A stretch of DNA of 47,003 bases from Protoeuglena noctilucae. Lineage: Eukaryota. Positions 267 to 41,170 of this stretch are shown here, piece by piece. The DNA lies in contig OY253683.1 in NCBI GenBank assembly GCA_958009085.1, positions 930,001-977,003 on the forward strand, read 5' to 3'. The notes under the pieces were generated by a model. That model ran no database searches, was not told the DNA's origin, and saw only the letters and a list, made by a program, of their open reading frames with translations. The stretch's first letter is position 1. Each line of letters opens with the position of its first letter. Position numbers and translations under genes: made by a program.

Positions 267-3015
267 ATGGAAGGCCCGGCGGGCGGCTCCCCCGAGGGGC
301 TGACGGTGGCGGTGGAGGGCTGCGGACACGGGGACCTTGATAACATCTATGCGACGATCAAGGACATCGAGGTGACCCTGCACGGCGCCGGGAGGACCGT
401 GTGAAGAGGCACGGGTTCTGCGAGGCCGCTTCGAGCCGCACAGCCCTCTGATGTGCCTGCCGCTGCAGTCTGCGAGTTCTATTATGCCACCAGAATGCAT
501 CGGGATGGTATTGCTGCCCTGAACCGCGCGCGAGGCCGAATACACTCTTCCACGCCTCGCTGCCCCTCTGCACTCGATCCCCGCCGCGTCTCCTGGCTCC
601 GCAGTCCCGTCAGCGCATCAAGGTCGATCTTCTGATCATCTGCGGGGACTTTGAGGCGGTGCGCAACGAGCAGGACCTCGAAACCATGGCCGTTCCTCCC
701 AAGTACCGCCACATGGGGGATTTCCCGAAGTACTACGCCGGGGAAGCGCAGGCGCCGGTACCCACGCTGTTCATCGGAGGGAATCACGAGGCCTCGGCGC
801 ATCTCTGGTGAGCAAGCCCTCGCCGGCGCGCAGGACCACGCGCGTTTCACACGAACAAAGTGTTGTTGATTTGCATATCAACAAGCTGTTGATATGCAAA
901 CTGTACATTATAACGTATCGCGCATGCTTCACATCGTGCGAGTCGATTATCGCTTGCAGGGAGCTCTACTACGGTGGCTTCGCTGCACCGGGGATGTATT
1001 ACCTGGGTCACGCAGGGGTGGTGCGCTTCGGGGGACTTCGCATCGCGGGGCTGAGCGGGATATTCAAATCCCACGACTATCGGAAGGGCCACTTTGAGAG
1101 GCCACCCTACACGGCGTCCACCATGCGCAGGCGAGGGAGGGAGGGTGGCAGTGGGGGTACGGGGGTATGGCGGAGAGAGGGGGGCGATTAATTGGTTGTG
1201 TGCACTATGCGCGCTGCAGTTATGCATATATATCGTGCTGTGTCTCTCCCGCAGTGCGTATCACGTCCGTGAGCTGGAGGTGTACCGGTTGATGCAGCTG
1301 AGGGAGCCCGTGGACGTGGGGCTGTCCCACGACTGGTGAGCGCGTCTTGTTAGTGTGTATGTGGTATATGCTAACATGTGTGCTAGCATGTATGCTAACT
1401 GATGGTGGTTTTGATGATCTGACCGGGTACCATTGGATGCACGAGATGACATAGCATACCCCACTGATACATTTGAACCGTTGCATACCCCGTCCCCCCA
1501 TCACCACCCATGCACTCAGGCCGTCGGGCATTGTTGAGTACGGCGACAAGCACGCGCTGCTGAGGGCCAAGCCGTACTTCCGGGACGAGGTGGAGGCGAG
1601 TGACGGGGGGTGAAATAGGATGGGAATGAGCAGGCGACATCACTCACTTCCACACTCAGTCCCTCCCTTACTCACTCGCATTCATTCCCACTCAACCCCA
1701 CCCCCCGCAGCGCAACGAATTGGGCAGCCCCCCCGCCATGTCCCTCCTCCGCGCCCTCCGCCCCCGCTTCTGGTTCAGCGCCCACATGCACTGCAAGTTC
1801 CCAGCAGTCGTGCACCACGATGACAGTCACAGTCACGATGTGGGCGCTAACAACCACGGCGACAATACCGATATCGACATCAACAATGACCATCCGCACT
1901 CGACGCGCTTCCTGTCTCTGGACAAGTGCCTGCCCAAGCGACACTTCCTGCAAGTGAGAGTGAATTGCTGGGTGTGGGTGTGCAGCCTATTGCACATGAG
2001 ATGGGTGTTGCTTAAGCGACACTTCCTGCAAGTGAGAGATGTCGATGTGTGGATGTGTGGGTGGGGGTGCGGGTGTGGGTGTGCTTCAGCACCCCTCACT
2101 TGACCGCCTCTCACCCTATCAACTCCTTCCCCCAGCCTCTCAGATCGTCCACTTCCCCGACGCTGGTAATCTTATTTATCAAACCAACCGCACCTAGTTA
2201 TCCTATAAGTAACATTTGTAACCTTTACCCCCTCAACGTCTACCCTTTCAGATCGTACACTTCCCCGAGGCCCGCGGCCCCCGTGAGTTCCGATACGACG
2301 CCGAGTGGCTGGCGGTGCTGAGGGGGACGCACCACTTGATGTCGACACGCATGCACGCGCCGCCCATGCCCACCAACGCCGACGGAACGCTCGCCAGGTG
2401 AGAGGGCGGATGCGGATGACGCTTTGCTTAGTGTGGATGCGAGGTGAGAGCGGATGCGGGTCACGCTTTGCTCACTAGCTTGGATGCGAGGTGAGGGCAG
2501 CTCACCACTGCAGCTCACCTGCTTCATCTCTCACCACCACCTCCCCTCTCACCACCCCCTTCCCCCTCCACCCACTCCTCACCTCCCCTCCCTCACCACA
2601 AACCCGCTCCCCCCTCCCCTCCCCTTCCAGACCCGGTGCATCTCCCGAGGATAGAGCCTACGTGGATGCGGCACTGGAAAGGGAAGGGCCGGGAGTGGCA
2701 CCCTTCACACCCACCGTCCCACCCCACCGATCGGGGCAGATGGGCAGTCGCCCACGGCAACCTGAATCAGTCCCGGTCAATCCCCAGGCGGTGCATCTGA
2801 TGTCGCTGATCGGGAGGGACTACAACCTCAGCTCTGGGGGGGGTGGGGGGGCCGATGGGGCAGCGGGGGTGGGGGCGGTGGGGGCGGGGATGGTGAGTGA
2901 AAATCCAGAAGAGATCGATCTGGGCGATGACGTTATTGACGGAGATGATTGTTTGAAAGTCACGGAGGACGTCGTGGGGAATGAGGAGGAGATTGCCATC
3001 GACGAGGAGGGGTAG
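267..3015 (+). CDS. DBR1: Lariat debranching enzyme (metallophosphoesterase), 8 exons
   Basis: The spliced product has [45 protein letters not shown] and [12 protein letters not shown], plus an acidic [16 protein letters not shown] tail. Exons are about 267-371, 605-807, 960-1130, 1255-1335, 1520-1595, 1711-1953, 2252-2397 and 2631-3015. Two GC donors (1131, 1596). Confidence 0.96.
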
Positions 3016-3168
3016 GGGATCGGTGGGGGTGGGGAAGATGTGAGCGGGTCGCGTGCATGCGTGCAGCGAGGGAGCTCAGCGAGGGATTGGAGATCGTTTC
3101 GACGCAAGCGCCGTGGCCCTTTGGGTGTTTGAAAACTATCGGTGCGAGTTGGATCTGCTTTCTGGCTC

Positions 3169-3173
3169 TGTAA
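3169..3173 (+). promoter_or_regulatory. Putative chlorophyte TGTAA polyadenylation signal of DBR1
   Basis: TGTAA lies about 155 nt after the DBR1 stop. UGUAA is the established chlorophyte poly(A) signal. Confidence 0.5.
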
Positions 3174-3354
3174 TGCCAAGGAGATTCTGTGACAGACAGC
3201 GGGACCAGGGTTTGCACCTTGTGAGCCTGAGTCGGGCGAAGATGATGGCTAATGAGTCACGACGAGTGTCTGTTGCAAAACTTACAGCGTGCGGAAGTCA
3301 TCTTCGTTCGCATCGTCAAAGCGCTGGGCCACCGCGGGATCCGTTGCAGCGACC

Positions 3355-6300
3355 ATGCCCGCGCGGGCCTCGCGCAAGGGCCCCAAGTGAGATACCGGAA
3401 ATGCTAGCGCAGTTACAATGTCCTTATTATAGATTCGACTCATACAAGCCCGCGCCGCCCTCCTCGTCAGCTCCCGGGCGCGCGCGGGACGACGAAAGCG
3501 GGCGTGGCAGCCGCCAGGGGGGCGCGACCCGCGAGCGCGTCATTGCCTCTCGCGCCGCAGGAAGGGAGCCGATGGGAAGAAGAGGAAGCGCGAGAGGGAA
3601 CTGGAGGACGCGGCGGTGCCGGACGAGGAGGCGGGGGGGCTGTTTTTCCAAGACAGCGACGACGAGGTGCGCGGCGGCCTGCAGTTGCCATATACGCGCG
3701 CCTCGACGTACCCGGCACATATCTGATAGTAACCTCTACTCGTCACGGCGTGCGCGCGTGCGGATATCCCCGCCCCGCGCGCAGCTGCACATGGCAGGGC
3801 GCCGCGGCGAGGGTTGCCCGAGAATGGCGCCGTAAAACGCATCGCGACCGCATTATTCGCGCGCAGGGTGGCGCTCGCGATGATATAGATGCCGTGGACG
3901 GCGCCGGCGCCCGCGACGAGGAGACGGCGGAGCAGAAGCGGCTCCGATTGGCGAAAGCGTTTTTGGACAGATTGCAGCGGGAGCGCGCGCTGGATGACGA
4001 GGGGAGGGAGGGCCACGAGGATGCACTGGGAGACAGGCGAGGATAAGGGATGAGATTCTTTGGGTTGTTATGTGTACATATCGGAACAAACCTCGTGAAG
4101 TGCGAGCGAGCCCGTGTTTGCTGTAATACTAGCCTAGTACTACCTATACAGATGACGAGACAGATAATAGCAATTACTAGCAATTCATTATTTCCGCAGA
4201 CTCCGTCGCGCTGCTGACCTGGAGAGCGGTGCGGTGTTTCGTCGGGTGGCGGATGGGGCGGGGCGGTGGCTGGGGGGGCCAGGCGTGTGCTGCACAGCGG
4301 GTGGGAGGATGCTGAGGGGACACCGGTGAGAATCGAAGACGAGACCTATGGTGTATGCGGGGATGGTGTCATATCACTGCACTCGCTTCGCACCGCAAAC
4401 AACACGCCACCGCCCCACCATCCCCACCACCCAGTCACCTCTTGCCGCAACCCCGCTCACCATCTACACCATCTCTCAACACCTGCACCACCCCACCACC
4501 CTCAACACCCGCCCACCACCTCAACCACCCCCGCTCACCTCATCACCCACTCACCCCCCCCCCACCCCTCTCCCCCCAGTCTCTCCGTCACCGCCGTGTG
4601 TCTGACAGACGACGATTCCACGGCCTATTCCGTCTCCAAAGACGGCTCTATATTCCAATGGGACATCCAAACGCTCACGCGCACCCGGCTAGACAAGCAC
4701 AGGCGGGGGGGAGCTCAAATTCAAAATTCAAAAGGAGATATGGATGGGGTGGGAGCAGTTGGGTCCGCGCCGTGGGTGGCTGCGCCTGCGAGGAGGGCCG
4801 GGCCGAGGGGTGGGCTGCTTGCGTGTGCGGTGTCGAGCGACAGGCGGTACTTGGCGGTGGGGGGGGGGAGCCATGAGGTGATGGATGGGGGGAGAAATGG
4901 GGTTGTATTCGGGTTGTGGCGAGGTTTGGAGTGGTGCATGGATGTTGAGGGGGGTGATGGCGGTGTGTTTGCATGGTGCGATGGGGGGATTGGCGAAGGT
5001 CAGGTGCTGTCATCTGTGGTAGCCACACTCTTCCCATCCCTCTCTCTGCACACCACTCACCACCCCTCTCTCTTTTCTCACCATATTCCACCCCCCACTC
5101 CCCCACAGATCACCATCTACGACGTCCGCACCCACTCCCCCGCCGGCACATTGCGCGGCCACAAGGACGCAATCTCCGGCCTCGCCTTCAAACACAACAC
5201 CCACGACCTCTACTCCACCTCCCTCGATCGCTCCGTGCGCATCTGGAGCGTGGGCGCGATGGCCTATGCGGACAGTCTGTTCGGGCATCAACAGGAAGCG
5301 CTTTGTGTGGATGTGGCGCCTGGGGGGGCGGAGAGGGCGTTGACGGGGGGGATGGACAGGACGGTCAGGCTGTTTAAGATTCCGGAAGAAAGTCATCTGG
5401 TGTTCCGGTGAGCATTTGGGATATGGGTGATGATGTGGTTGAGATAAGGGAGGGATGCTTGAGATGGGAGGCGTTGATTTGGTGGAGAGATGGAGTTCAA
5501 AAAAAAATGAGGGAGATGGTGATATGCTTGGCATTCATTACTTACTCACCTTCTATTTCTCTCTCTCTCCCTCACCCCCAGTGCCCCCAGCTTAGTGACT
5601 GAGAGCGTGGCATTCATTACCGGCAGCCAGTGGGTGGCGGGGGATGACGACGGATGCGTGTGTGTCTACAGCAACACCAAGAAAAAGGCCATTCAGACTG
5701 TCAGAAACGCGCACCCAGTTGACGCAACGGAGGGCGCGGGGGGGGTGCAGCAGCCGTGCGCGGGGTGGGTGACGGCGGTGGGGGTGGCGAGGTGAGGGGT
5801 GGGGGTGCGAGTGGGGTGGGGGTGCGTGTGTGGTTTGCGGCAGTTGCTTGTCCTGTTTGTTCTTGTTTGCATCGATGGAGTGGTGAGGTGTGAGGGGCAA
5901 GAGAGCGGGTGGTGACGGCAGTAGTGTGTGTGCGATTGTCCCTGGTTTGGCGTGGTTGTGACCATGCAACCACTCGCATCGATTAATTATCCATATGAAC
6001 ATTAATATATAAACATCTTTATTGTGTCTGTCTTGTCCCCAGGGGCACGGACCTGGTGGCTACGGGCGCGGGCAATGGGGTCGTGCGGGTGTGGAGGGCG
6101 GAGGGGGAGCCTGCCAAGGGGGGGGTGACGGGCATTGCACGTGAGTGGCGATGGGGGAGGGGGAGGATGGGGGATGGATGGGGGGAGAGAGAGAGATGCA
6201 TGATGTATGGTTGTGTGCGACGATGGGTGATGGTATCTGTAAGCGTGTATGTCCAGCAATCAGGCAGCCCCCCACCCACCCCATGCACACGCCTTCTCAC

Positions 6301-9900: not shown

Positions 9901-11529
9901 CCAACATCCCCACCCTCATCACCCCCATCGCCACCCTCACCGCACGGGGTCGCCCGCCCTCATCTCCAGCGCCCGTGGCCCCTCCGTCAGTGCTCTGGCA
10001 AATGCACGGAACATTGCCCTCCCCCTCTGCGCGCACCCCGCGTGCATGGCGTGGCGGAAGAGGGGGGGGCGGGCGTGGAGGGTGGCGGACGCGCGGCGGA
10101 GGAGGGTCGGGTCGGGGTCGGGGGGGGTGGTCTGCGGATGGGGGAGGGGGGGGGTGAGGGAGTGAGTGAGAGTGAGTGGGTGAGGTCGGGGTCAGGGGTG
10201 GTCTGGGAGTTGAGGGGGGGGGGGGGGGGAATGGGGTGTGACGAGGAGAGTGAGTGAGTGAGTGAGTGAGTGAGTGAGTGAGTGAGTGAGTGAGGAGTGA
10301 GTGAGGGAGAGCAGACGTGGGGGTGACGCAAATGATGCTGATGTGCCGGCAGTCTGCTGTCCCCTCACACACCTCCCCACACCCTCCCCACCAGCCATTC
10401 CCCTCATTTACTCAAACCCCCACCCACGCAACCCCCACCTGCTCGCCCGTCCCCCCCCAGGCGTCCACCACCCACGTGCACAGCCGCTCGAGCGCCACCT
10501 CGTGATGAGACGCCACCGCCTCCACCAACTCCAATCCCGCACCCTCCCCGCGCTCCGCCACCAACGCCCTGGGAGGGACAGATGGGAGGGGGTGCGTAGT
10601 ACTAACATGTTGTTGGTACTAACATGCATGAAAGCATGTTACCACCCTGTTACGACTTCCACATGGTTCCCATGCACATCGTCGCCTGCATTACATTACT
10701 GAACCTGCACCCCGTCTCACAACTCATGCCCTCTCCCACTCGCCTGCACTTGGCCTGTGCTCTGTCCACGGCCTCCAATGCTGCAAAGAAGGCATCGCCA
10801 ATCGGACCCTCCCGCACCGCAGCCACCTGCTCGTCTCGCAGCTGGTAGTGGGCGAGGAAATCACGCACGCGAGCCTCGCTGTGGGGAGCGGAAGGGCCGG
10901 GGCGGTCGCTGCGGCTTAGGGCGCGCGGGAAACAACACAATGTGCACTTCCCAAGCCTTCCGGGGCCTCACCGGGCCTCTGCGCGCTGCGCCTGCGCTCG
11001 CAGCCGCGACGTCTCCATAAGAAGATCCTGCGTCGACGCGCGGCTCGCCTCCAGCGACGCCCGCACCGTCGCGCACGACCCCGCCAGCGCGTCCGCGTCT
11101 TCCGCCACCGCCTCGACCGCGGACGCCACGCGGCCCACCTCCGACAGCAGGCGCTGGTACTGCGCGAGACGCGCCTGCAGAACCTCGGAGCGCAGGTCCC
11201 GGCGCCCGGCGGGGTCGCTGCGGGGCGGGACGGACTGGAGCTCTCAATTCCCGCCTAAAGCATCTCCCCGGGCGACCGAGAAGGCAATCCGGACAACTCA
11301 GTCGCTAGATATGTTGACAAAGGCAGCGAAGAGGTAGCGCGATCCTGCATCGCGGTTCGAGGCGCGGGGAGCTGGCCAAGTTTTCGTTGCGCTGCGATGC
11401 GTCCCACCTGGCGAGGGAGACGTCCCCGAACACGCGCAGCGCCTCGACCCGTTCCCCCGTTTCCTTGATCTCAAGGACACGGCGGACCTTGCGGACAAGC
11501 GCGGGCGGGGCCGCGGCAGGGTCAGCCAT
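6918..11529 (-). CDS. COG6: Conserved oligomeric Golgi complex subunit 6, about 12 exons
   Basis: The spliced product has LVRKVRRVLE, RRDLRSEV, FLAHYQL...DAFFAALEAVDRAQAKCR and [38 protein letters not shown] (the COG6 signature HDPxRYVGDMLAWxHQ), with C-terminal LVDSYAYVW...TPGEFATVVGV. GC donor at 10743. Confidence 0.9.
10248..10305. repeat. (GAGT)11+ microsatellite in a COG6 intron
   Basis: 11 perfect GAGT units at 10248-10291, followed by degenerate units. Confidence 0.95.
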
Positions 11530-13823: not shown

Positions 13824-16800
13824 TCACGCCCTCTCCCTCGCCACGAGCGTCGCCTCCCTCTCCCCCGCCTGCTCCCCCCTCTCACGCATCGTGAGCGTCA
13901 CCGCCCCATCCGCCCCCAGAGCGTACTCCCACACCCACGAGGGCTCGTCCCCCGCCAGCCGCTCCACTTGCACTTTGAAACCCTCGGGACTGGCAGCGTC
14001 TGGCAGTACCGTCATTCTGGCACCGTCTGGCACCACGAAGGTGTGAGACCCGGTAAAGGTCACGTCTCTGGCGTCGAACTCGGAGCGGCCCTCTAAAAGC
14101 ACCAGCATGCCCTCCTTGCGGGAGACACTGCGGAAGGGGGGAGAGGAGAAGGGGAGTGGGTGAGATGACATCACGGTGGCAGTGGCATGGTGAATCGATG
14201 CCAACCCACCCACGGTTGCGTACTAGCTCAGACCGCACCGTTGCTTCCAGTGCACATGAACAGCGCAATCCAGTCCTCTCCCACACCACCACCCCACACT
14301 CACCGCAGCTTCCAGTGCACATGAGCTGTGCAATACAACACTCATCTTCCCCACTACCCACTCACCGCTGCTTCCAGTACACGTTGGCGGGTCGTCCCTG
14401 TCACCCCCGCGTTGACCACGCGACACCCCACCATGCGACAACGCGCGCCGCGGTCCGAGAACACCAGGCGACGCTCGTCGGAGTTAGCAGAGTCATTGGC
14501 ATTGGCATTGTTATTGTCATCGTTTGCATTAACAGCCTCGGTGTGGCCCAGGGGACAGGATGCCTCGACGCGCAGAGAGCCGTCCAGGTCCNNNNNNNNN
14601 NNNNNNNNNNNNNNNNNNNNNNNNNNNNNNNNNNNNNNNNNNNNNNNNNNNNNNNNNNNNNNNNNNNNNNNNNNNNNNNNNNNNNNNNNNNNNNNNNNNN
14701 NNNNNNNNNNNNNNNNNNNNNNNNNNNNNNNNNNNNNNNNNNNNNNNNNNNNNNNNNNNNNNNNNNNNNNNNNNNNNNNNNNNNNNNNNNNCCCACCTCC
14801 CTCACCTCCACCAGCACGTTGATGCCCTCGGATGCCCCGTACGCCCTCCCGCACGACGCGAACCCGAACGCCTTGTTGCCCAGGCACCCGGCACCCGCCA
14901 GCGCAAGCAGGTTGGCGTCCGTGCCCGCCATGGGGTTGGAGATCTGCCGAACGATGGCGGCGGTGCGGCCGCGGGACGCCAGCCACGCAAACGCGCCTGC
15001 GCGCGAGAGGGGTGGCGAGGCCGTCACACGTGATAGCTCCCTGTTACACGAGACTGACACACACGCAGCGGATGGCTCGCAGTGCGCAGGGCGCAACCGG
15101 CACTGTGCAGTGTGTTATGCACAGCCGGCCCTGTGCCGGCGCACAGTGTGTGACCCACTGCCACCCGGCGCCCATCCCTCGCCCTCCCTTCCCACTCGCC
15201 TTCGTCCTCCATGAGCTTCCACAGGGCCCCGTGCCCCCCCGGCTTGAGCATGGGAGACAGCGCCCCCTCCAGCAGCCACGCCCCGTCCTCCGCCGACACC
15301 ACGGGCACCATCGGCTGCTCTACCAAATAGAAGGACTCACGGCCACGGCCCATCCACCCACTGCGGACAGGCCATGGGTGGAGTGAGAGGTAATTCGGGT
15401 TATGAGCGAAGTGAGATGTGCAATGGCATAGTGGGAGCCTCCGGCAGCGAAGTGAGACCGCAGCTGCCCACTGTGTGGTAGAGCGAGGTCCCACAACCCT
15501 CGCGTCCCGCACCACCACCCCCGCACCCCTCCCTTGTACCCCTCACCACTCCTCAAGCAGCCCCACGATCCGCGCGTGGTTCCCCTTGGCCTGGCTCGTC
15601 ATCATCACCACGGGCGTCGTGTGCTGCTCCCCCGTCACGCGCCAGTGAAGGTACTCCCGCGCCTCCAAGTCACGCACCAGCCCTTCCAGCAGTGACCGCC
15701 CCGCATAGGGCAGCACCGCCGTCGGCAGCGCCTCCCCCGTCGCCTCGTCCACCAGGCCCAGGCGGTCACCCGCGCCGCCCACGGGATAGATCTCCGCCAG
15801 GCGGGGCAGCACGCGGAGGCCCTCCCCCGCCCACCGCCGACGGCGCTCTGGGTGTATATTATGGGGGGGTGGGTGTGGGGTTACGGTATGGTGGACGCGC
15901 TTTCGGATGCTGTTGGCGGCCTCGCTGCGTGCAGGGCGACGTCGTTGCGTGCCCACGACACCCAGCGCTACCCACCTGGCCCCTCGGCGCACGCGTCGCT
16001 GATGTCCGGCCCCGTGGGGGTGTGGAAGGCCACGCGCGTGACCCCCGCCCCCGCCCCCGCCTCCTCGCGGCCCTCGATCAGCTGCAGCGCCTTAATCTGG
16101 TAGCCCACCAGGCCGCCGATCGAGTCGTAGAAGCGCTCGGCACGCGACAGCGTGCGCACCAGACCCGCCAGGGCCATTCCCAGGGGGTCCCCACCCGACG
16201 CGACCCCTGCGAGCGACAACCCCGATTGCGTAGCGATAGCAGCGCGTGCGTCACGCGGCAGGTGTTGTTGTTCATTCACCATCACTACTGTCGCCCTCAC
16301 CGTCGCCCCAGTCCACGCTGTAGGTGCTGTCCGCGGCAGAGGCAGACGGCGAAGGGGCCGGGTGGTCCGTCTCCGCAGTCGGCAACACCGACAGGACGTG
16401 CCCCTGGCCCATGGCCGGCAACAGCAGCAGCACCGCCAGCCCGTCCGCGTCGAGGGCGCCCTCCGCAGCAGCCAGGATGGCGCGGCCAGCGGGCGTCGCG
16501 GCCCAGGAAGACACGAGAGGGTCGCGGCGCAGCATCGACAGCCTCGCGAGGGGGTCGGATGCCGACTCTGCGGGGGGCGAGGGAGGGGCGCGTTCGATTC
16601 TGCGGTGCAGGGCCGGGAAGACGCTTCACGCGTCGCCGGCGACGCGCAACCCACCGAGCCTCTTGCGGAGGTCTTGCAGCTGAGATATCTGCGCAGCGAT
16701 GGACCGCCCCGCCTGCACGCTCGCCTCCGCGACCGCTTGAGTGCGCCGTGACATCGGCCTGCAGGGAAGGCGTGCGGGGGCGCGGTACGCGGGGCTGGCG

Positions 16801-25847: not shown

Positions 25848-28800
25848 TCACAGCGGCAGCGCCCCCAGCCTCGCCACCAGCCCCTCCGCCCCCCTCACCC
25901 CCCCCAGTGACCCCCGCAGCCCCGCCGCCACCTCCCTCACCCCCGCAAGCGCGACCCGGAACGACCCATCCGCCCCCAGCTCCCCCGGCACTGCACCGGC
26001 CACGTCCTCCAGCGCAGCCACGCAAGCGCCGGCTATCACCGGGTCCCCCGCCGCTGCCGGCCCCCCCGCGAGCGCCCGCAGTGCCGGCACCACGCACCGA
26101 TCCAGCAAGTGGCTGGCGATGAGGGGCGCAAGGGACGCGGGCCTGAGCACCTCGTGCCACCGGCACGCGCACGCCAGGGCGATGACGGCGCGTGCGAAGA
26201 GGGTGGAGGCGAGGTGGAGGAGGTGGGGGCTGGCGTGGAGGGCCGCGGCGGGCCAGGGCATCAGCCGCACCGACTCCAGGCGCTCTCTGTGGGTGGGGAG
26301 TGGATGAGAGTGGATGGGGTGAGTGGACGAGAGTGGATGTGAGAGTGGGTGGTGAGCGAGTGTGGTAATTGTGAGTAACAGTGAAGCAGTGGGGAGTGCA
26401 TGGCATCGATCACACCGACTCCACCCCCCACGACCCTTCCCTCCCCATCTCTCTCTTTCGTCACCTGAGCCTCCCCTGCACGGTGTCCAGCAGCCCCGCC
26501 AGCCCCGGTGCCTCTGCCGGGAGATACACGAGCAGATCCGACACCGCACCCACCATCTGCGACGCGACACGCAAGGGGGGGTGATGAGCGACGAAAGCAT
26601 TTGCACACACATGTTGAAGGACATGCACTGACACAGACACATTCGGGGCAGGCCACCTGTGCCGTCAACGCACATCTCTTGCTGCCCCTCATGTCACATG
26701 CAGACTCGCCCCACCCCTCTCACATCCTGTCTCACTATATGACCCCCATGCATACAGTCTCCCTCACAAATACACACCCCATTTCGCCCCAAATCTCACT
26801 CTCCGCATGCAGTCTTACTCCAAACCCCCCATGCATACAGTCTCATCACATCACATCTCACCTGGTTCGTCTGCGCGGGGTCGATGGGGTCCCATGCTGT
26901 CTTGAGCATCTCCCCCACATACGGCAACACCAGCTGCTCCACCAGGCGAGGCATCAAGTCCGCATCCGGGTCACCCTGAGATTGTGAGCAGGAATTGTGA
27001 GTAGGAAAAGGTGCATGGGTTGATGGATGCAGGGACAGGTGAGGATCGACAAAGACGGATTGGCACAGTAAGCACTGACCCCCCCCCCCCCCCCCCCCCA
27101 TCCCCCTTTCCGATTGTCTCCTCGCCTGCTCCCCGTCGGCCCCGAAGTCGAACAGCTCCTTGTACCACCCCTGGGATTCAAACCCGCCACCCCCCGACGC
27201 GCCGTACAGGGGGCCCCACTGCAGCAGCTCCGATCGCACGAAGGGGGCCAGGAGCACCGCGGCTGCGTCGGAGGCATACGCGTCTCTGTAGGTGGAGGGG
27301 AAGCGGCGCTTCCACTCCTCCAGGAGAGATCGCACGGCCTGGGGGGGAGGGGCGGGGGTGGGTGGGAGGCGATGAGAGGTGTGCTTGTGGCTGGCAGGGC
27401 AAGGGTGGTTTGCGAGGTGTGCCTATGGTGCTAATGCAGGCGTGACATGAGAGGTGTTAGTAGTGACGTGGCAGAGGCAAGCAAGGTATGCTCGTGGTGG
27501 CAGGGCATGGGAGGCATGATGGGAGGCAACTGCTGTGGCACGACCAAGAGGTATTGTGATAATGGTGGCAGGGATGAAGAGGCAATGAGAGGTGTAATGG
27601 CAGTGGCAGGGCAGGCGAGGCGGCAATTGCGGACACACCAAAGACGACAGCACGGCTGCTGTCACAACCGGTGGCACCCCCCCACCCATCGTCTCCCCCT
27701 CACCTTGAGCGATGCGTATTTGTCCGCCACGTCCGCAAACACCGCCGGCACCGTGCGCACGATCTCCTCCCTCCGGCGATGGAAGGCCGACATGTGAGAC
27801 GCACGCACACTGCCACCCCCCTCCGCGCCCTCCCCCAACGCCCCGTGTCTCATCTGCGCCCTCTGCCACCCGCTCCCATTCCACCTCCCCTGCGCCTGCT
27901 TGGCCATCTCCTGCGCCTGCCTCCTCCTCACGGCGTTCATGTCACGCCCAGTCTCATCCACATCGGCCGGCACAGAGGCACCCGACAGCGCCTCCCCCAC
28001 CGCGCGCTCCCACTCCGCCGACGCAGCGTGGGACGCAGAGGTGGATACTGACACAGAGTTGCCCACTCCAGCTGCGATGGCACCCAGCGCGGCCCTGACC
28101 ACCCGCTGCCCCAGTGCAATGTCCATGTCCACCTCCTCCTCCCAGGCCCTCCCCAGGTCCTCCGCACACTCCGCCACCACCCGCATCACGTGCAGCTCCA
28201 TCTCCTCCACCACCGGCGCCTTGCTGCCCAGGCAGTCGCACAGCGCGTCGATGTCCGATCGCAGACCCTGCAGATACTCGTACCGCTCGCCCACGCGGGA
28301 GAGGGAGGCCTCGAGAGACTCCACCTCGTCCACTGCATAAGGGGAGATGGGAGAGGATGGTATGAGTGCATGATGTAGAACATTTGGGACGGGCAATGAC
28401 AATGCACGTAAGGGACGAGGCAACGACTGTTGCAAAGCGTTTCCCACTCTTCCCACTCTCCATCCCTCCCTTTCCACCCCCCTCCCCATTCATAACCACC
28501 CTCTATCCCTCCCCATTCCCATCCCCATCACCCCCCTCCCCTCACCCATGGCAGCCAGTTGCTCCCCCGCCCTCTTCCATCCCCATTCACATCCCCATCC
28601 ATAGCTGCTCTCTATCCAATTCCCTCTCCATCTCTACCCCCACCATCTCACCCGTGGCAGCCAGTTGCTCCCCCGCCCTCTCCCTCCTCCTCTGCACCTC
28701 CTCCCCCTGCACCCGCAGCCGGCGCACCCCGTCCTCCAACGCAGCCAGCACCTCCAATGGGGACAGCTCCACGCGGGGAGGGGGGTGGGCGGAAGAGGGG

Positions 28801-30445
28801 TGCGCGTGGGAAGACGCCTGGGGGGAAGAGGGGAGATGAGATGACTATAACGGGATGAGACATGCTGCGGAGTAGTACTAGCACTCGCGAGCAACGACAG
28901 ACCATGCATTCAAGTCACAGACCAGGTGCGCAACTCACACTCGCCAACAGCCACCACTACCCCACCCCCACCCACTCATCCCGCCTCACCTTGCGCCTCG
29001 CTTGCACGTCCTCCAGCTCCCTCCCCCTCAGCGCCCGCCGCATCTGCCTCTCATCGAATGCCCCGTCCCCATCCTCATCGTCAACACCCTCATCCATCGC
29101 ATACACACCGCTGCGGGGACCCACGGGAGCGTCTGACCGCAGACCCAGCCCAAACGCCGTGCGAGGGCCCTCCTCCCCACTCCCACTCCCGGACTCATCC
29201 TCGCCGTTCCCCTCTCCCTCCCCCTCGCCCTCTCCCTTTCCACTTGCAGCGTCCCTCCCCCACTCGCGCTCCCCGCGCCCCCCATCCGCCGGCAATCGCA
29301 CGTAATCTCCTGCCAGCCCCGCCCGCCGCATCCGCTCCCGCCGCGCACGCGCCGCGCGCACCAGCGCCTCTCCCGGGAACGCAGCCGCGCCATCTTTACC
29401 CTCCCCACCCCCGTCATCATCCTCATCATCATCAAATCCCTCCACCACCACCTCCCGGCCCTCCCGCACCGCAGATAGGTCTACTGACTCTGGCAGGCGC
29501 GTCAGGTCAATGTCCCCGGCAGGGCGCGGCGCCGACCCCAGCCCGCGGAACCCACGGCCGGCCGATGCGGGCGCGGGTGCGGGTGCGGGTGTGGATGTGG
29601 ATGCGGTGGCTTGGGAGGGAGCGGCGGTGCCGTTCGCGACGTTGAGGCCGCGGAAAGACCCCGCGAGTCGGAAGGCCGGCTCCTCCTTTCCGCTCGTCGC
29701 TGCCACGGCATGGTCGGGGTCGTTGGGGGGTGGGGCGCCGTGTGCAAACGTGGCCTCCTTCAGTTTCGCCAGGTCCGCTGCGGAGTAGGCGCCCCCTCGG
29801 CGGACCCCGGGGCCTTCGCTGGGATCGCCGGACGCAGCGGCGACGGCGGCGGCGGAGTCGGGCGCTGCGGAGACCCAGGAAGGGGCTACGATTGAATGGC
29901 GAAGCACACACAACACGCCGATTGTATGCAATGCAATCCCAGGATGCAGCCACGTGTCACCTGCGCGGCGCCCCTGTCGTTCCTTCTTTCGTTTCTCCTT
30001 CCCCGATGCCTTCTTCTGGGGAAAGAGACTCCCCTCCTCCTCCTCGTCGCCCCCAAAGCTGAGCAGCGTGGACGGCGCCTGCGAGGGGGATTGTAGGGGC
30101 ATGGGAAGGATGCAGCGCGAATATCAGACCGATGAATTGCGCCAAGAGCGTTCCGGCCACTCGCGCGGTGGCGCCGGTCGCGCGTGGGAGCTCTCGCAAC
30201 GTGCGCGGCCTCCTGTCGCGCGAGACACGCGTGCGATGGAGCGCACTCTCTGTCCACGGCCTCCAGAAATACATGAACATGCTGGGGCCAGGATGCCAGG
30301 GCGCCGCGCTCGCCTTCGGGGCCAGCCCAGCGAGCCGAGCGCCGAGCGTGCCCGCGCCCCCAGCCGGCGCCGCTACGCCTGCGTCGTCCTCCTCGGCGTC
30401 CCCATCGTCTTTCTTGCGTAAGTTGCGCTTACGGAACGTGCTCAT
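25848..30445 (-). CDS. GC-rich sequence DNA-binding factor family protein (GCFC2/PAXBP1/ILP1, NTR2-like), 9 exons
   Basis: MSTFRKRNLRKK, LLSFGGDEEE, ERYEYLQGLR..IDALCDCL..KAPVVEEME, VFADVADKYASL, WKRRFPSTYRDAY, APFVRSELLQW.PL and DADLMPRLVEQLVLP. GC donors at 30313 and 27125. Confidence 0.9.
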
Positions 30446-31099: not shown

Positions 31100-34000
31100 A
31101 TGTCTTCCCTGGCGGAGCGGGTGCAGCGGGTGGCGGTGAAGGAGGTGCCCGGGACGCGGGAGCAGGCCGAGGAGGAGCAGGCGGTGCTGGAGGACTTCGC
31201 TGTGCAGCATGGCAGCACGTACGACTTCCGCGGAGAGGTGGGGCCCGCGAGCTGCGAACTGCGAGTGGAGATGCGAATGTGAACGTATTTATTGTGATAT
31301 GTTCTCTCTGTCCATGTCGCAGGGCGAGCATTACACGGCGCAGGCGCTGCTGGGCTGCCTGGTGCGTCACCGGCTGACGAGCGAGGCGTGGCAGCGCACC
31401 TGCTCTGGTCCGCACCTGCTCTCAGCCCTGCAGTGCGTGCGGGTGCTGTCGCGGGATGCAAACCTGCACGGCGCTTTTGATGACGACCGATGGCACGGCG
31501 CGCTGGCGGGGATGCTCGCACGTTTGGGGGCACTGCACCTGGGTCACCCGGTGGGAGCAGTGGGTGCGCGGCCGGGGTCGGAGAACGGCGACGATGGCGA
31601 CGAGGGATCAGTTCAGGAGGACGGCGTCGATGACCAGGCATTGGACGCCTATGCCGCGGACCTTCTGGTGGAGGCCGTCAGCATCGTGCGCCATTTGTCA
31701 TCCAGCCGCCCCCTGCTGTCCCGCATGCTGTCGGCCGGCGTGCCCCACCGCGTGTCGGTGCTGTTGAGCAGCAGGGACCCCGCCTTGGTCCCCGTGGCGC
31801 TGCTGTCCTTGGCGGCCATGGCGCGCGACAGTGAGGGACACGAGGCGGTGGTCACGCAGGCGAGGGGGGGGTGTGATGGAAGGGGTGTGAGTGGTAACAG
31901 GTCGCTCGTGCGGGGCTGCTTTTGCGGCGCTGTGTGCGTGGCTGTCTTGGATGACACACGTCATGGGTCTGTCCCAAGCCACGCATGCGTCTGCTCTGCC
32001 ACATCCATGCTTGCCAGATAATACACACAGTATACACAATCTCTGCTCTCCTACCCACTCCCCCCAGGGCACCGTGGAGTCGCTCCTCCGCATCGTCCGC
32101 GACTACCGCCCCGAGCTGCAGAAGCTCAGCGCGTCGCTGCTGCTGGGCGTGTGCAAGTCCCGGCGGGGCCGCGCCCTGGTCATGGATGCCTTGGGGGCAG
32201 GCGCCCTCCTCAGCGCGCTCCCCGGTGCCGATGCCGAGCTGGGCCACCTGGCCCTCCGCGCCCTGCATGCACTCGCGCAGGACCGCGCCGGCGCGCAGGA
32301 GCTGCGGCAGACGGGCGCCGTGCCCGTGCTGCTGCAGCATTTGGCCGATGCCCGTCGCCCCCCCGGTGCATCCCTCGAGCACCTGGCCATGGAGGCGTGC
32401 TCTGCATGCTCGGTGCTGGCACGCATGGCGGAGGACCTCGAGTGCGCCTACCACATCCGCGCATGCAACGGCGTCTACGTCCTCGGCAGGCGGCTGCTGC
32501 ACCCCGTGCCAGGCGCACCCACGGGACCGCAGGGCGAATGCAAGTGGGAGCACAGAGTTGTGCTGCACGCCCTACGCGCACTGCGCGCCGTCTTCAGCAT
32601 GGAGCGCAACCGGGGGGTGTTTAAAGCCCTGTTCCCGCCTGATGTCTTCGGCCCCTTCATTGACGTCGGTCATTTCCAGACGGACCTCGATCGATACAAG
32701 CCCGTGGCGGAGAGGGTGGCGGCGATGGGGGACGCGGCGCGGCAGAGGGTCGAGGCGGCGCTGGAGGAGATCAACCTCGCCAGGGACGGGCCCTCCCGGT
32801 TCGTCAAGGCGAGTGGGGGGGTGGGGTTGGAGATGCGGGTTGAGATGGGGGGGGGGGGGGGTGGAGATGCGAGCAGTGTTGGGGGCGGCGGATATGGCAG
32901 TGATGTGGCAGTGCTGGAGTCACTGGATCGATGATGTGTGACAAATTAATGCTATGCTATTTAACTCATGTCGTGTTTCCCTGCACCAGGGTTACGAGAT
33001 TCTGGAGTTGCTGGGGCGCGGCGGGTACGGTGCGGTGTTCAAGGCGCGGCGTGGGAAGGAGGGGCCGCTGGTGGCGCTGAAGGAGATGCCGATCGCAGAT
33101 AACGGCGCACTGGTGAGTTGGTGGTGAAGAGTGGAGTGGAGAGGGGCAGAGGTGCGTTCAAGCACAAACGCCACTCATGATCCATCTCCGCTCCCTTGCT
33201 TGCTCATGCACCTCCACCCACTCCCTCGCCCATGCACCTCCACTCTCACTCCCTCGCCCATGCACCTCCAATCTCACTTCCTCGCCCATGCACCTCCACA
33301 CATTCACTCCCTCGCCCGCCTCCTCAGTTCGGGATGGGCAACCTGACCATGGAGCAGAAGGCCGCGGAGGCGGGCCATATGTGCCGCGAGGTGGAGATCC
33401 TGTCCAAACTCGACCACCCCCACATCGGTGAGGGCCGTTGCTTGGCTGTGGGTGTCACTGCTACCGCCGCTGCACTGCTTGTAGGCGATCTCATGACCAG
33501 TGGGTGTGTTCCGATCAACACCCGGCAGCCGTGGGGTATCTATCTCACACATGTGATTACACATGTAACTCCATCTCCCCTTCTCTCCCCTCACCAGTCA
33601 AGTACCACGAGAGTTTCGTGGAGTCCGACCACCTGTACATCGTGATGGAGCTGGCCGAGGGCGTGTCCCTGCAGGACTACATGACGGCGATGAGGGAGAG
33701 CAACCGGGTCATGTCGGAGGACGACGTGTGGCAGATCCTGTCCGCGGTCATGCTCGCACTCGACTACATCCACAACACCCACAAAATCATACACCGGTGG
33801 GTGACAGGGGGTGGCGGGGTGGCATGGGTGGCATGGGTGGCGAGAACTGTGATTTGGCTGGTAGTATATTCTATACAGTTGCATATCCACCCACCCATTC
33901 CCGCCACTCCCTCAGGGACCTTACCCCCGCGAACATCGTGCTGGGCAGCGGCGCCGACATGCTGGGCCGCGCCAAGGTGACGGACTTCGGCCTGGCGCGG

Positions 34001-35652: not shown

Positions 35653-38600
35653 ATGACGTGGAAGTTTAGTCTCCGGAAAGGGAATGAGGGGCAGGCCCAG
35701 GAAGCCCGGTGCGCGCGCTCTGCCCTGCCTGCGCCGCTCCCGGCGTCCCCTGCGCCCGCCAGCGCGCCTGCGCTGCGGTGGATCACACTCAAAGCCATCC
35801 ACGACTCGCAGGCGCGTCGATGTCGCGCCCCCGCGTCCCCCACCCGGGTCCCCCGAGGCGCAGGAGATGATGCGCCACCGTCGCCACCTCTTCCTCAACA
35901 ACTCGATCCGCACCACCAAGTACAACGCCTTCAACTACTTCCCCAAGGTCAGGGTGTGCTTGGCGCGCGGGCTGGCGGCATATGGGCACTGTTGCGTAGC
36001 CCTGCAGTTGTGCGTACCTGCCAGCGCTCCGCAGTGCCGGCGCCCACCATGCCCCTCGCCCCTGCGCCCCGCAGTGTCTGTACGAGCAGTTCCGCCGCCT
36101 TGCCAACCAGTACTTCCTCCTCGTGGCCATCATCTCCCTCACTCCCGTGTCCCCCGTGACGCCCTTCACCAACGTCATGCCCCTGGTGTTCGTGCTGGGC
36201 GTGTCGCTGATCAAGGAGTACTTCGAGGACCGCAAGCGGCGCAAGAAGGACAGGGAGATCAACGGGCACCTCGTGCAAGTGCTGGGGAGGGACGGGTGGC
36301 AGCCCACGCCCTGGCGCGACGTCATGGTCGGAGACATCGGTGCGGCATGCGGGGGGCTGTGGGAGTTGAGCTGTTGGGGTTGAGACGGACCCCGCGCATG
36401 TCTGACTAAACAAAACCTCTACACCTTCTGTCGTCTCGTGTCCATGTCTAACGAAGCCAATTTCTTACCTCCTTCATCTCTGCATGCTTGCTTACGCCAA
36501 TCTCTCATCTACCTCCACATCTCGTGTCCCGCAGTGTGCGTGAGGAACAACGAGCAGTTCCCTGCAGATTTGGTGCTCCTGTCAACGGGGGTGCCCGAGG
36601 GGGCGGCCTACGTGGAGACGTCCAACCTCGACAGGGAGACGAACCTGAAACTGGTCAAGGCGCAGGGTGAGAGAGAGAGGGGCGATGGGATAGGGGGAGG
36701 ACGCTGTGTGCTCAATGCGCTCTGCTTGATGCTGTCGGTTCTGTGCTCTCTCTGGGCTCCGCTCACTGCTCACTCACCATCTCTCTGCTCCCTGCTCTCT
36801 GCTCACCGCCCACCGCCCATCTCTCTCTGTTCATTGCCCCCGCTCCCTCACCCTCACACCATACCCTCACCCCCCCCTCCCCCCTTATGATGTAGACGAC
36901 ACGTGGGCGTACGACTCTCCCGAGAAGCTCAGCGCCCTCGAGGGCTCCTACGTCGAGTGCGACCCCCCCAACAACTCCCTCTACACCTTCACCGGCAACC
37001 TGGTGCTCAAGCGCGAGGCGGGGCAGCACACGGTCCCTTTGGGCCCCGCCAATGTCGTCTTGCGCGGGTGCATGCTGCGAAACACCCCCCACATCCACGG
37101 CCTGGTCATCTACACGGGCCACGAGTCCAAGATCATGCTCAACTCCTCCGCCCCCCCCTCCAAGCGCTCGCACCTGGAGCGCAACCTGGACAAGCTGGTG
37201 GCGGTCATGTTCAGCATCCTCTTCTCGATGTGCTTTATCGGCGCGGTGGTGCTGGGGGTGTGGATGCAGCAGCACGGCAAGCAGCACTGGTACTTGGAGT
37301 TCAACAGCCCCTACGACGACCCCACGACGGCCAAGGTGTGGAACGTCGACAAGCCGGTCACGGTGGCGCTGCTCAACTTCCTCACGCTCATCACGCTGTA
37401 CTCGACGCTCATCCCCATCTCCCTCTACGTCTCCATCGAGATCATCAAGTTCACCCAGGCCACCTTCCTCATCAGCATGGACCCCCACATGTTCCACAAA
37501 GAGTCGGGCACGCCTGCCCTGGCGCGCACCTCGAATCTGAACGAGGAGCTGGGGCAGGTGGAGTACGTCTTCTCGGACAAGACGGGCACGCTCACCCAGG
37601 TGAGGGTGGGCGCGGCTGCGGGTGCGATGCAGGAGTGCGATCGACCATCCGCAGCGACTGACTGGTTGGCATGGATGCTCGGATGCAGAGTTGCCGTATC
37701 GACCATTGGCAGTGACTGGTTGCTGCCGTGGATGCCGGGTGCTAACACTGAGCAACTCTGACCTCGCTCACTGCTTGCCCTTCTACCCCAGAACCTGATG
37801 GAGTTCTTCAAGTGCTCCATCGCGGGGGTCAAGTACGGCGCGGGGATGACGGAGGTGCAGAGGGCCATGACGGCGCGCAAGAGCGGGCGCACCCTCGCGG
37901 ACGTCATGTCCTCGGAGCCACCTCGCCGCCCACCCCGCGAGCGGGGCATGAACTTCGAGGACGCGCGCGTCATGGATGGGGGGTGGCGCCGGCAGCCGTC
38001 CGCGGGGGTCATCGAGGAGTTCTTCCGGGCCCTGGCGCTGTGCCACACGGTGGTGCCCGAGGGGGGCCAGGAGTTCTCGAACATCAAGTACCAGGCGGCG
38101 TCCCCCGACGACGTTGCCCTGTGTTTGGCCGCCAAGCACGCCGGGTGGTTCTTCCAGCGCCGCACCACCGCCAGCCTCACGCTGCAGGTGGCCGCGAGCG
38201 TGATGAGCGCCGGGGGGGGGCGCGGGGAGGAGACCTACCAGCTGCTGGCCACGCTGGAGTTCAACTCGACGCGCAAGCGCATGAGCGTGATCGTGCGGGA
38301 GCCGTGGAGCGGCAACATCAAGCTCTACTGCAAGGGCGCGGACAACGTCATCCTGCAGCGGCTGGGCAAGAACGCGAGAGCCACGGCGAGGGGCGCAGAG
38401 ATGATGTGGCGTAGTGATTACGAATAGATTGGCGCAGACATGCACAGCTGCATGCGACGCGCCCGTCACACAGCGTCGCTCGTCCCCAGCCATGCCCGTC
38501 TATGGTTCCCTGATCTCCCTTCTCTTTGCTTCTCTCCCGCAGCAGTACAAGGGTCAGACGGTGGAGCACCTGGAGGAGTTCGCGCACGAGGGCCTGCGGA

Positions 38601-41170
38601 CGCTGTGCATCGGCGTGCGCTCCCTCAGCGAGTCGGAGTTCCAGTCGTGGTTCGCACGGTTCACGCAGGTGAGGCGGTGGGTGGTGGGATGACTGGTAAA
38701 TGCTGTATGTGGTCACATATGGTTGACAGCATAAGGAGAGGATGCTATGATCTGGGTTTGGATGCTGTGTCATGGGCGGAGAGCACGTGATGGGTCTGAA
38801 TGCGATGTGGTGGGTGGATGCCATGGGAAGAATCACGGTCGCTATGCCGAGAGACGGGGCCGCATGCGGAGACTCGGAGTGTCACATCCTCGTTGCTGGC
38901 CCCCTCTCTGCCATTGCAGGCCAAGCAGAGTCTGACGGAGCGTGAGGCGAAGATCGAGGCAGTGGCGGAGGAGATCGAGCACTCCCTGGAGCTACTGGGG
39001 GCCACGGCCATCGAGGACAAGCTGCAGGCGAGAGAGAGATGGGTGATGACAGGGGATGGCTGTGGAGGTGGAGGGGTTGTTAGTGCTGAGAACACGGCTG
39101 CAAGTGAGTGGGGTTTGGTGCTGCTGCGAAAAGAGCTGCGGTTGAGAAGGGGTGTTACCATTGAGATCAAGTCGCGTCATGCTACTCGCTCCCCCCCTTG
39201 GTGTCCCAGGTGGGCGTCCCCGCGTGCATCGAGCGCCTGATGCGCGCCAACCTCAAGATTTGGGTGCTGACGGGCGACAAGATCGAGACGGCCATCAACA
39301 TCGCCTTCGCATGCTCGTTGCTGACGGACGACCAGGAGCAGCACATCGTGCAGAGCACCACGGCGCTGGTCAAGGCGGCGGAGAAGGAGGCCGCGGAGAT
39401 GGCGGAGAAGGAGGCGAGGAATGGAGAGGGGAATGGGACGGGACGCATGTGACATGGACTCGCGCATTGTGGGCGATGCGCGCGTGTGCCATGTGGGCAT
39501 GGACCTGTGCATTGTGGGCATGGCCTCGTGATGCGCGTGTGTGCTGCAGCTCACCAACACCCTCCCTGTAGCCCCTCCCCGCCCCAGGGCCGCGCGCATG
39601 TGTCCGCGATCCGCGCCGCCGAGGTGGCCCGGCAGCTGCGCGAGATCCAGGAGTCGATGCGCGCGTCCCCCAAGCAGCCGTTCGCGCTGGTCATCGACGG
39701 GGCGGCCCTGGAGAGCGCCCTGGGGGACGATCTGAAGCTGACGCTGCTGGACGTGGGCCAGCGGTGCCGCGCGGTGGTGTGCTGCCGCGTGAGTCCCCTT
39801 CAGAAGGCGCTGGTGACGCGGCTGGTGCGCGACAACGCCGGCAAGGTCACGCTGTCGATCGGGGACGGTGCCAACGATGTGTCGATGATCCAGGCGGCGC
39901 ACATCGGCGTGGGCATCTCCGGGAACGAGGGCATGCAGGCTGTGATGGCCAGCGACTTCGCCATCGCCCAGTTCCGCTTCCTGACCGACCTGCTGCTCGT
40001 GCACGGCAGCCAGATGTACCACCGGGTGTCGCGCGTGGTGGGCTACTTCTTCTACAAGAACTTCGCATTCACCATCACGCAGTTCATCTACGGGGCGTAC
40101 CAGGGTGAGAATGAGAGAAGAGGAGGGCTGCGACAGCCATGTGCTGTGACAGCCATGCGCTTGCCGTGGGCGTGCCGCCACGCAGTGACACCGCTCTCTG
40201 TTACCGTCGCAGTGTACTCTGGTCAGACCATCTACGACGACTGGTTCACCACCACTTTCAACCTCTTCTTCACCAGCGTCCCCGTCCTGGTCGTGGGCGT
40301 GTTCGACCAGGAGGTCCTCAAGCACACGGCGCGCACCGTGCCGCAGCTCTACGCATTCTCGCAGAAAAACGCCAACTTCGACCTCGTCACCCTCGGGGGG
40401 TGGCTGGCCAACGGTGCGTGTGTTTGTCTGTGTGTGGGGGGGGGGGTTGGCGTGATGCGTGGGCGCTCGGCAGTGTTGTGGCGCTTGCAGTAGCGACACA
40501 ACAGCGGGCCACCCATCCACCCCCCACCTCCCACGCCGTCTGCCCTCACCATCACTCTCTCAGGTCTCCTCCACGGCGTGCTGTGCTTCTTCCTGCCCTT
40601 CTACTCCCTCTCCGAGAGCACGACCGCCGTCGACCGCCATGGCCGGCAGCTGGACATGTACGCGACGGGCATCATGTGCTACACCATCATCATCACCACC
40701 GTCAACCTCCGACTGCTCATCCAGACCACCCACCAGACGCTCTGGCACCAGGTCGCCATCTACGGCTCCATCGCCATATGGGTCGCCTTCATCCTGGCCT
40801 ACTCCGCCTTCACCCCCAACTTCCTCTCCAAGTTCAACTCCTCCCACGCCACCGTATACCTCGTCTTCTACCAGCTCCTCGTCACGCCGCGCTTCTGGTG
40901 AGGCCGGGGCAGGGTGTGCGGCACAGAGACGGCAGCAGTGCGCGCTGCGCTCTCTCCGCCCACCTCGCCCCCGCTCACCCCCCCCCCAGGCTCGGCACGG
41001 CGGCCTGCACGGTCATGTGCCTGCTGGTGGACTTCCTGTTCCTGCTCCTGCGGCGCACGCTGCGCCCCTGGGACTGGCAGGTGGTGCAGGAGTACCAGAC
41101 GCGGCACAAGACGCTGTGGGTGCCGAGGTGGGCCGTGTACGGGGGGCCCAAGAACGAAGACACGGTCTGA
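35653..41170 (+). CDS. ALA: P4-type ATPase phospholipid flippase (ALA/DRS2/ATP8A type), 13 exons
   Basis: [84 protein letters not shown] and [12 protein letters not shown]. The actuator motif reads DRET rather than DGET. Confidence 0.96.

Follow-up and report, generated by a model that had tools for sequence, protein, structure and literature searches.

Introduction

Introns that carry GC at the donor and AG at the acceptor (GC-AG introns) had a mean share of 1.2% in 121 plant genomes (Pucker & Brockington 2018, PMC6310983). Larger shares have been published for some GC-rich algae. In Emiliania (Gephyrocapsa) huxleyi, GC was found at 135 of 241 curated junctions (56%), which was ascribed to the 65% GC genome (Feldmesser et al. 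2014, PMC4028052), and the shares predicted for the pelagophytes Aureococcus anophagefferens (14-17%) and Pelagomonas calceolata (~14%) were attributed to high GC content (bioRxiv 10.1101/2024.10.30.620910). Here we analysed a stretch of 47,003 nucleotides (nt) from Protoeuglena noctilucae (assembly GCA_958009085.1, contig OY253683.1, positions 930,001 to 977,003 of the forward strand), referred to as the window and numbered from its first letter. A sequence-only reading of this DNA had put GC-AG introns at about 15 of about 90 (~17%). A curated census gave 15 of 81 introns in 12 genes, or 18.5% (95% confidence interval (CI) 10.8-28.7%), and these 15 coincide precisely with the introns that the reading had listed; the observation of abundant GC-AG introns in the window is confirmed.

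Within the green lineage, a supplementary table of the plant survey (PMC6310983 MOESM7) gives 7067 GC-AG against 117336 GT-AG introns in Chlorella sorokiniana (5.7%), 8046 against 106289 in Micractinium conductrix (7.0%) and 495 against 8087 in Micromonas pusilla (5.8%), where each share is GC-AG/(GC-AG + GT-AG) from annotation counts that may under-call GC. Low shares are given in the same supplement for C. variabilis and M. commoda (0.7%) and for Coccomyxa (1.7%), and another supplementary file of PMC6310983 puts the C. sorokiniana genes with a non-canonical site at 43.8%.

The window resembles E. huxleyi in being DNA of a GC-rich marine alga with common GC donors, AG acceptors and GT-biased gene models that go wrong (PMC4028052), and differs from it in that GC donors are the majority there (56%) and a minority of ~18% here, in a chlorophyte-like host rather than a haptophyte. 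The pelagophytes, at 14-17% GC-AG, fall in the same range as the window (bioRxiv 10.1101/2024.10.30.620910), but they are stramenopiles with fewer than one intron per gene, against about seven per gene here. Closest in lineage are the GC-rich green algae, which also show raised GC-AG shares in annotated introns (PMC6310983), although the share in the window is ~2.5-3 times higher (p = 5e-4 against 7.0%). The GC at +1/+2 and the AG at the 3' end are also those of ordinary U2-type GC-AG introns of plants and animals (~1%), whose frequency is an order of magnitude lower; the norm of around 1% on which the reading had relied agrees with the 1.2% of the plant survey (PMC6310983), and the share in the window is far higher. 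GC donors did not form a majority (more than 50%), either among the 81 introns (15) or among the RNA joints listed (three of 15). What was found within the window is the pattern of an enriched alga, with GC-AG introns at several percent or more in DNA of around 60% GC or higher.

The novelty implied by the sequence-only reading was overstated, since other GC-rich algae are already on record with GC-AG shares of this order or above. The phenomenon is of an already known type, that of the GC-AG-enriched GC-rich alga, with no new mechanism on present evidence. A literature search for abundant GC-AG introns in a chlorophyte returned no report beyond the PMC6310983 table and none at the level seen here, its coverage being incomplete and the species' own genome paper possibly reporting as much. 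This is possibly the most extreme green-lineage case. Should the window be representative, its ~18% would exceed by far any GC-AG share so far reported from green-lineage genomes (no more than 7% in the tables) and would have an independent origin beside those in haptophytes and pelagophytes, a prospect that we raise tentatively and would not count on.

GC-AG junctions supported by RNA

The RNA runs containing host sequence were marine metatranscriptomes. Contigs from four runs, which came from one study and no more than three samples, were placed on positions 1-20000 of the window, and each joint was shifted through its whole range of placement ambiguity before its donor and acceptor were called. 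Among the 15 joints listed of 33, 12 were GT-AG (minus strand) and three were GC-AG, and the latter confirmed exactly the donors 15199, 18953 and 19145 (minus strand) that the reading had proposed. The first is an intron of a UGP3-type gene (14997..15199, AAG|GCGAGT), seen in contigs of runs X1 and X4 and being the sole GY-AG placement within a 5-nt ambiguity range. The other two lie in an M32 carboxypeptidase gene, namely intron 3 (18781..18953, CAG|GCGAGG; contigs of X1 and X4) and intron 2 (19059..19145, AGG|GCGAGG; contigs of X1, X3 and X4). No GT-AG placement was possible inside the ambiguity ranges of these three joints. Once the RNA joints were spliced, the M32 reading frame was unbroken, and the matches to the Pfam profile Peptidase_M32 spanned both GC junctions, with positions 102-219 followed by 222-254 across intron 2 and 222-254 followed by 257-305 across intron 3. 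GC donors are used in vivo at these RNA-covered sites.

GC-AG junctions supported by homology

At junctions with usable homologues, every frame-keeping combination of a GT or GC donor with an AG acceptor within 45 to 60 nt on either side was scored by aligning the whole protein to the homologues. An earlier scheme, in which a moving segment of 120 residues was scored against mixed distant references, proved misleading and was replaced by whole-protein scoring. Six GC junctions ranked first in these comparisons (1131, 1596, 27125, 38386, 39028 and 39414).

Three of them belong to the gene of a P4-ATPase flippase (ALA3-like), for which 120 homologues were fetched and the closest, P0002, was used as reference. 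P0002 is an uninterrupted open reading frame (ORF) on metagenome contig L001, and matches model residues 53-1201 in one tblastn segment of 1150 amino acids (aa) at 69% identity. All 11 conserved flippase junctions ranked first against P0002, the three GC donors included. For intron 6 (38386..38542, plus strand, ACG|GCGAGG) the reading had left the donor at 38374 or 38386; 38386 ranked first of 35-54 alternatives against P0002/L001, 36 units over the best GT, and 38374 fell outside the top four. Intron 8 (39028..39209, plus strand, CAG|GCGAGA) also ranked first, 14 units over the GT at 39043, which would add five residues to the protein; across its junction the motif IEDKLQ|xGV was invariant in 10 of 10 aligned homologues. 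Intron 9 (39414..39587, plus strand, GAG|GCGAGG), again at rank 1, scored 27 units over the best GT, and its junction is gapless against P0002, with an in-frame stop 36 nt downstream of the donor.

Eight homologues served as references for the lariat debranching enzyme gene DBR1. Its intron 3 (1131..1254, plus strand, CAG|GCGAGG) ranked first of 13-20 alternatives, 27.5 units over the best GT, with a gapless alignment to all eight. Intron 5 (1596..1710, plus strand, GAG|GCGAGT) ranked first of 9-15, 18.3 units over the best GT (1590), and its junction likewise opened no gap against homologues. The sixth junction lies in a GCFC-domain gene, whose homologues came from a representative search: intron 7 (26976..27125, minus strand, CAG|GCGAGG) ranked first of six alternatives, none of which was GT, and the junction ..GADGEQ|GDPDADLMPRLV.. 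matched the GDPDxDLVPxLV motif of eight homologues. Where homologues exist, splicing at the GC donors yields predicted proteins that are collinear with them. A 271-aa database protein, P0241, was rejected as evidence for GCFC junctions, as it is a genomic read-through ORF.

Donors were also forbidden one at a time in our gene finder (described below), and the loss of score was recorded in nats. Forbidding 27125 broke the GCFC gene (-11.2 nats). Intron 3 of the RRP9/U3-55K-like WD40 gene (4037..4199, plus strand, CAG|GCGAGG) is imposed by the sequence, since reading on past the donor meets an in-frame stop after 7 nt and the closest GT lies 78 nt upstream; forbidding it truncated the model (-10.6 nats). 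The exon upstream of 4037 gave a weak match to residues 72-107 of human U3-55K (7mq8_SG, E 0.16), and no RNA joint at 4037 was seen among the 15 joints listed.

The remaining five donors were placed by gene model and consensus. They are putative COG6 intron 3 (10569..10743, minus strand, CAG|GCGAGT), where forbidding the donor cost 5.9 nats and shifted it to a GT 6 nt upstream; putative intron 5 of a clamp-like gene (24930..25084, plus strand, CAG|GCAAGG), where an in-frame GT 12 nt upstream (TC|GTGGAC) may be the donor instead and forbidding GC cost 7.6 nats; probable GCFC intron 2 (30079..30313, minus strand, AAG|GCGAGC); and two putative introns of a gene with ARM repeats and a NEK-like protein kinase domain. 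GCFC donor 30313 ranked first of 42 in a poorly conserved region, leading another GC donor by a mere 1.6 units, a weak margin, with the best GT 9.7 units lower; when it was forbidden, the finder picked the GC donor 30304. In the kinase gene, the intron at 31860..32067 (plus strand, CAG|GCGAGG) cost 6.8 nats when forbidden. The other (32809..32989, plus strand, AAG|GCGAGT) lies just upstream of the kinase domain, with its acceptor at 32989 fixed by Pkinase profile positions 1-34, which begin at residue 2 of the next exon; forbidding its donor cost 1.5 nats and brought in the GC donor 32869 as substitute. Losses at weakly supported sites (1.5-7.6 nats) thus fell broadly within the range at verified sites (2.2-11.2 nats).

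Further searches around the weakly supported junctions were negative. No homologue was found with the NEK exon 32068-32808 at E <= 1e-5, a Pfam scan of 12 junction-flanking exons at E <= 10 gave no additional matches, and PDB searches with RRP9 exon 4, the exons of the clamp-like gene and those of COG6 gave no usable junction test. By site, three of the 15 GC donors are supported by RNA, six as the best junction against homologues, one by a stop codon that forces it, and five by model and consensus.

Census of donors

Introns were counted with a small Viterbi gene finder of our own, first trained on RNA-confirmed exons and then iterated, in which GC donors carried a handicap of 1.9 nats and the donor prior permitted ~20% GC. 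Its models of 12 genes contained 89 introns, of which 18 had GC donors. A further GC donor, at 2671, had been removed by re-modelling of DBR1 before this table was made, since the NPQ motif of the homologues shows a single exon at 2631-3015. Three of the 18 were rejected on curation: 4703 and 31386 are weak signals that open in-frame, stop-free 'introns' of 93 and 48 nt, and 35812, which opens an intron of 46 nt in an unconserved N-terminus, was not the best alternative there. Five more modelled introns were dropped as dubious, namely COG6 introns 7, 10 and 11, GCFC intron 1 and UGP3 intron 6, which spans a run of N. The 81 introns that were left include the 15 with GC donors, which lie on both strands and in nine of the 12 genes, the other three having none.

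Among junctions in the table that were validated by RNA or homology, nine of 36 were GC, or nine of 37 with the RNA joint 16759-17042 that lies outside the model, this subset being biased toward genes picked for having claimed sites. The share from RNA alone, which is unbiased, was three of 15 among the joints listed (CI 4-48%). Against a background of 1%, the probability of at least 3 of 15 is 4e-4 and that of at least 15 of 81 is 4e-15.

It could be argued that the window over-represents GC-AG introns, because of sampling noise, local clustering or wrong models at the five sites placed by model and consensus, and that the share in the genome is a few percent, as in Chlorellaceae. The sample is indeed just 47 kb and 12 genes, five sites are unverified, three of the genes have no GC donor, and the RNA-only interval (4-48% for the joints listed) reaches down to such values. 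However, the 10 verified or forced sites taken over all 89 modelled introns still give ~11%, GC donors are spread across nine of the 12 genes and both strands, and the probability of at least 9 of 37 at a true share of 7% is 9e-4. Over-representation by the window is thus rather unlikely.

Donor context and intron class

GC was read at +1/+2, on the strand given for each, at 16 of 16 listed coordinates (38374 and 38386 both counted). As the reading had stated, 14 of the 15 donors read G|GCGAG and one (24930) reads G|GCAAG, and all 15 introns begin with GC and end with AG. A donor box resembling ATCCTT is the mark of U12-type introns. Here GCGAG or GCAAG is followed by G-rich sequence with no ATCCTT-like box, so these introns are not U12-type; one survey (PMC11347168) reports no minor spliceosome in Chlorophyta. 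The median length of GC introns (173 nt) does not differ from that of GT introns (178.5 nt), nor does their GC content (0.59 against 0.60), and GC and GT introns therefore form one class.

The donors themselves do differ. G at -1, A at +4 and G at +5 are invariant among the GC donors, and A stands at -2 in 13 of the 15. A position weight matrix trained on GT donors, with +1/+2 ignored, gave mean scores of 7.92 bits for GC and 5.66 bits for GT donors (Mann-Whitney p = 4e-5). The context AG|G.RAG is found around most GC donors (13 of 15) but few GT donors (14 of 66), the counts in the validated subset being seven of nine and six of 27 (p = 0.005); the stronger context of GC donors also holds in genes in which every junction is independently fixed. 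This comparison agrees with the reading's description of the GC donors as the prevailing donor G|GTGAG carrying T>C at +2, mostly after exonic AG or G. In GC-AG introns the remaining donor consensus is said to be stronger than in GT introns, a result credited to Thanaraj and Clark in 2001.

GC donors in the window are confined to the strongest donor contexts (AG|GCGAG). The converse does not hold. The heptamer AGGCGAG occurs 20 times on the two strands, 12 times at modelled donors and twice inside exons in sense (16724 and 11048, both minus strand), neither of the latter being modelled as a donor. An RNA contig covers the entire 103-nt exon around 16724 without a break, and a perfect GC-donor motif is thus insufficient for splicing.

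Recognition of the GC donors

The sequence-only reading had offered two explanations, a spliceosome that tolerates +2C unusually well or the erosion of GT donors by GC-biased substitution, and the evidence leans against a special spliceosome. In its explicit form, that explanation holds that a change in Prp8, in the 5' end of U1 or in the ACAGAG box of U6 lets +2C be read as well as +2U, so that GC donors are effectively neutral. The share seen here (15 of 81) well exceeds the 5.7-7.0% tabulated for GC-rich green algae (p = 5e-4 for the comparison with 7.0%), as an altered spliceosome might produce. Neutrality of +2C, however, predicts GC donors in weak contexts as well, and those observed are confined to near-perfect AG|GCGAG. 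An altered spliceosome is accordingly unlikely.

We consider it probable that the ordinary major spliceosome reads these GC donors, and that they abound because the genome is GC-rich and +2 T>C changes persist at strong donors. The near-perfect contexts are the compensation pattern expected of ordinary pairing with U1 and U6, and thus favour ordinary recognition. On this mechanism the U:A pair lost at +2 with U1, and later with U6, would be made up by full pairing at -2, -1, +1 and +3 to +5; T>C changes at +2, arising by GC-biased mutation or gene conversion, would persist at donors strong enough to bear them; and the high frequency of GC-AG introns would be characteristic of a lineage whose genome is GC-rich, with parallels in Emiliania huxleyi and the pelagophytes and milder ones in Chlorellaceae and Micromonas pusilla.

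Several points weigh against this explanation, or against the frequency on which it builds. The denominator is soft, as it comes from our own gene models under a GC-permissive prior (~20%) and after the removal of eight dubious introns by hand. The RNA-only estimate is wide (CI 4-48%, from three of the 15 joints listed of 33), five of the 15 sites (10743, 24930, 30313, 31860 and 32809) are without independent support, and the genome at large may differ from a single 47-kb window. There is some circularity in the consensus comparison, since weak GC donors would not have been put forward and four weak ab initio ones were rejected. The flippase gene, the only one shared with the nearest relative found, is intronless in that relative. 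Finally, the roles of U1, U6 and Prp8, and the direction and cause of the change from GT to GC, are ones that we infer.

That the GC donors are artefacts of assembly errors or wrong exon boundaries, nearby GT donors being the real ones, is most improbable, for although GC dinucleotides are plentiful at 64% GC and will give frame-compatible sites by chance, and the finder itself made four spurious weak GC donors (2671, 4703, 31386 and 35812), the RNA joints admit no GT placement, comparison with an intronless orthologue and with conserved motifs settles six junctions, one extended motif is common to all 15 sites, four runs (of a kind unstated in the run table) contain 100% of the words sampled from window 200-9000, and the artefact is already contradicted for 9-10 sites.

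With this window, the association of GC donors with GC-rich genomes gains an example from the green lineage. The restriction of GC donors to otherwise perfect contexts within one locus constrains models of tolerated GT>GC turnover, and if the window is representative, the uniform AG|GCGAG donors would offer a tractable green system in which GC-biased substitution can be set against change in U1 or U6.

Consequences for annotation

The reading's warning that standard gene finders would mis-annotate this genome was borne out in a toy test, in which our own finder with GC donors forbidden split three genes and reached a summed score of 1974.6 in place of 2105.8. The GT-only flippase came out as two proteins of 819 and 423 aa (homology scores 2672 and 1574, against 4247 for the intact model), GCFC as 715 and 207 aa, and M32, modelled with GC donors at 503 residues, as 233 and 261 aa; the homology score of DBR1 fell from 1006 to 958. 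The locus already provides an example. P0241, which corresponds to window 27704-28330 (minus strand), matches GCFC exon 6 at 100% identity and extends into both flanking introns; it is a genomic read-through ORF call and not a spliced product, and hence an instance of mis-annotation. A large proportion of the host's genes will come out split or truncated in any annotation built on GT donors.

Gene content and host

The window is packed with intron-rich nuclear genes, at about seven introns per gene, and its GC content is 64% overall and 59-73% per 2-kb bin. Except for RAD1, the gene names proposed by the reading were backed by per-exon Pfam scans. DBR1 carries the Metallophos and DBR1 C-terminal domains, the RRP9/U3-55K-like gene WD40 repeats, COG6 its N and C domains and the M32 carboxypeptidase the Peptidase_M32 domain, and the same scans support the UGP3-type gene, the GCFC-domain gene, the ARM-repeat and protein-kinase (NEK-like) gene and the ALA3-like flippase, along with a mitochondrial carrier gene, a PsbP-domain gene and a DEAD-box helicase. 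The label RAD1, given to the gene with donor 24930, was not upheld; this gene had no Pfam match, and its PDB match to a PCNA-like protein is weak (E 0.73). A search of the 47-kb window with Rfam at gathering threshold gave no matches, and no small nuclear RNA (snRNA) among them.

The host was treated as what is probably a marine chlorophyte-like green alga. The nearest full-length DBR1 homologues are those of Haematococcus and Chromochloris. In a quick single-gene tree, the flippase clustered with its metagenome orthologue, one further protein and Pedinophyceae sp. YPF-701 (Shimodaira-Hasegawa-like approximate likelihood ratio test (SH-aLRT) 100), apart from streptophytes.

The flippase orthologue is a single uninterrupted ORF on metagenome contigs of ~67% GC, L001 (10001-13474), L002 and L003, with identities to the spliced model of 69% (L001) and 56% (L002 and L003). 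All 11-12 introns of the host gene are thus absent from related GC-rich picoeukaryotes. Among the metagenome relatives L001-L005, the flippase was the sole gene shared with the window, and no synteny was found.

Intron structure and repeats

Introns in the window are strand-asymmetric and of low complexity, with runs of G and (GAGT)n after the donor and long CCCCTCACC-like tracts before the acceptor. C-rich examples lie at 4500-4586, 6304-6390 and 7700-7950 and G-rich ones at 5779-5833 and 10107-10294, and such asymmetric tracts make up most of the repeat families found in the window.

Some introns contain copies of their own boundaries. DBR1 intron 6 (1954-2251) holds an exact 25-nt copy of the end of the upstream exon together with its GT donor (1936-1960 against 2014-2038), as well as an 18/20 copy of the acceptor and the first bases of the downstream exon (2142-2161 against 2250-2269), and thus carries decoys of both of its boundaries. 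An 88% copy of 49 nt spans the GCFC donor 28651 (28530-28578 against 28636-28684), and three units of ~62-65 nt at 14236-14421 span the RNA-confirmed UGP3 acceptor 14365/14366 (repeat families D18 and D19). Boundary copies within adjoining introns could bear on the origin of introns by local duplication.

An assembly gap of 200 N at 14592-14791 lies inside the UGP3-type gene and interrupts its exon structure and reading frame. A 12-nt tandem array (family D1) occupies 46762-47003, up to the end of the window, with 12 overlapping copies in a 105-nt register at 66-100% identity.

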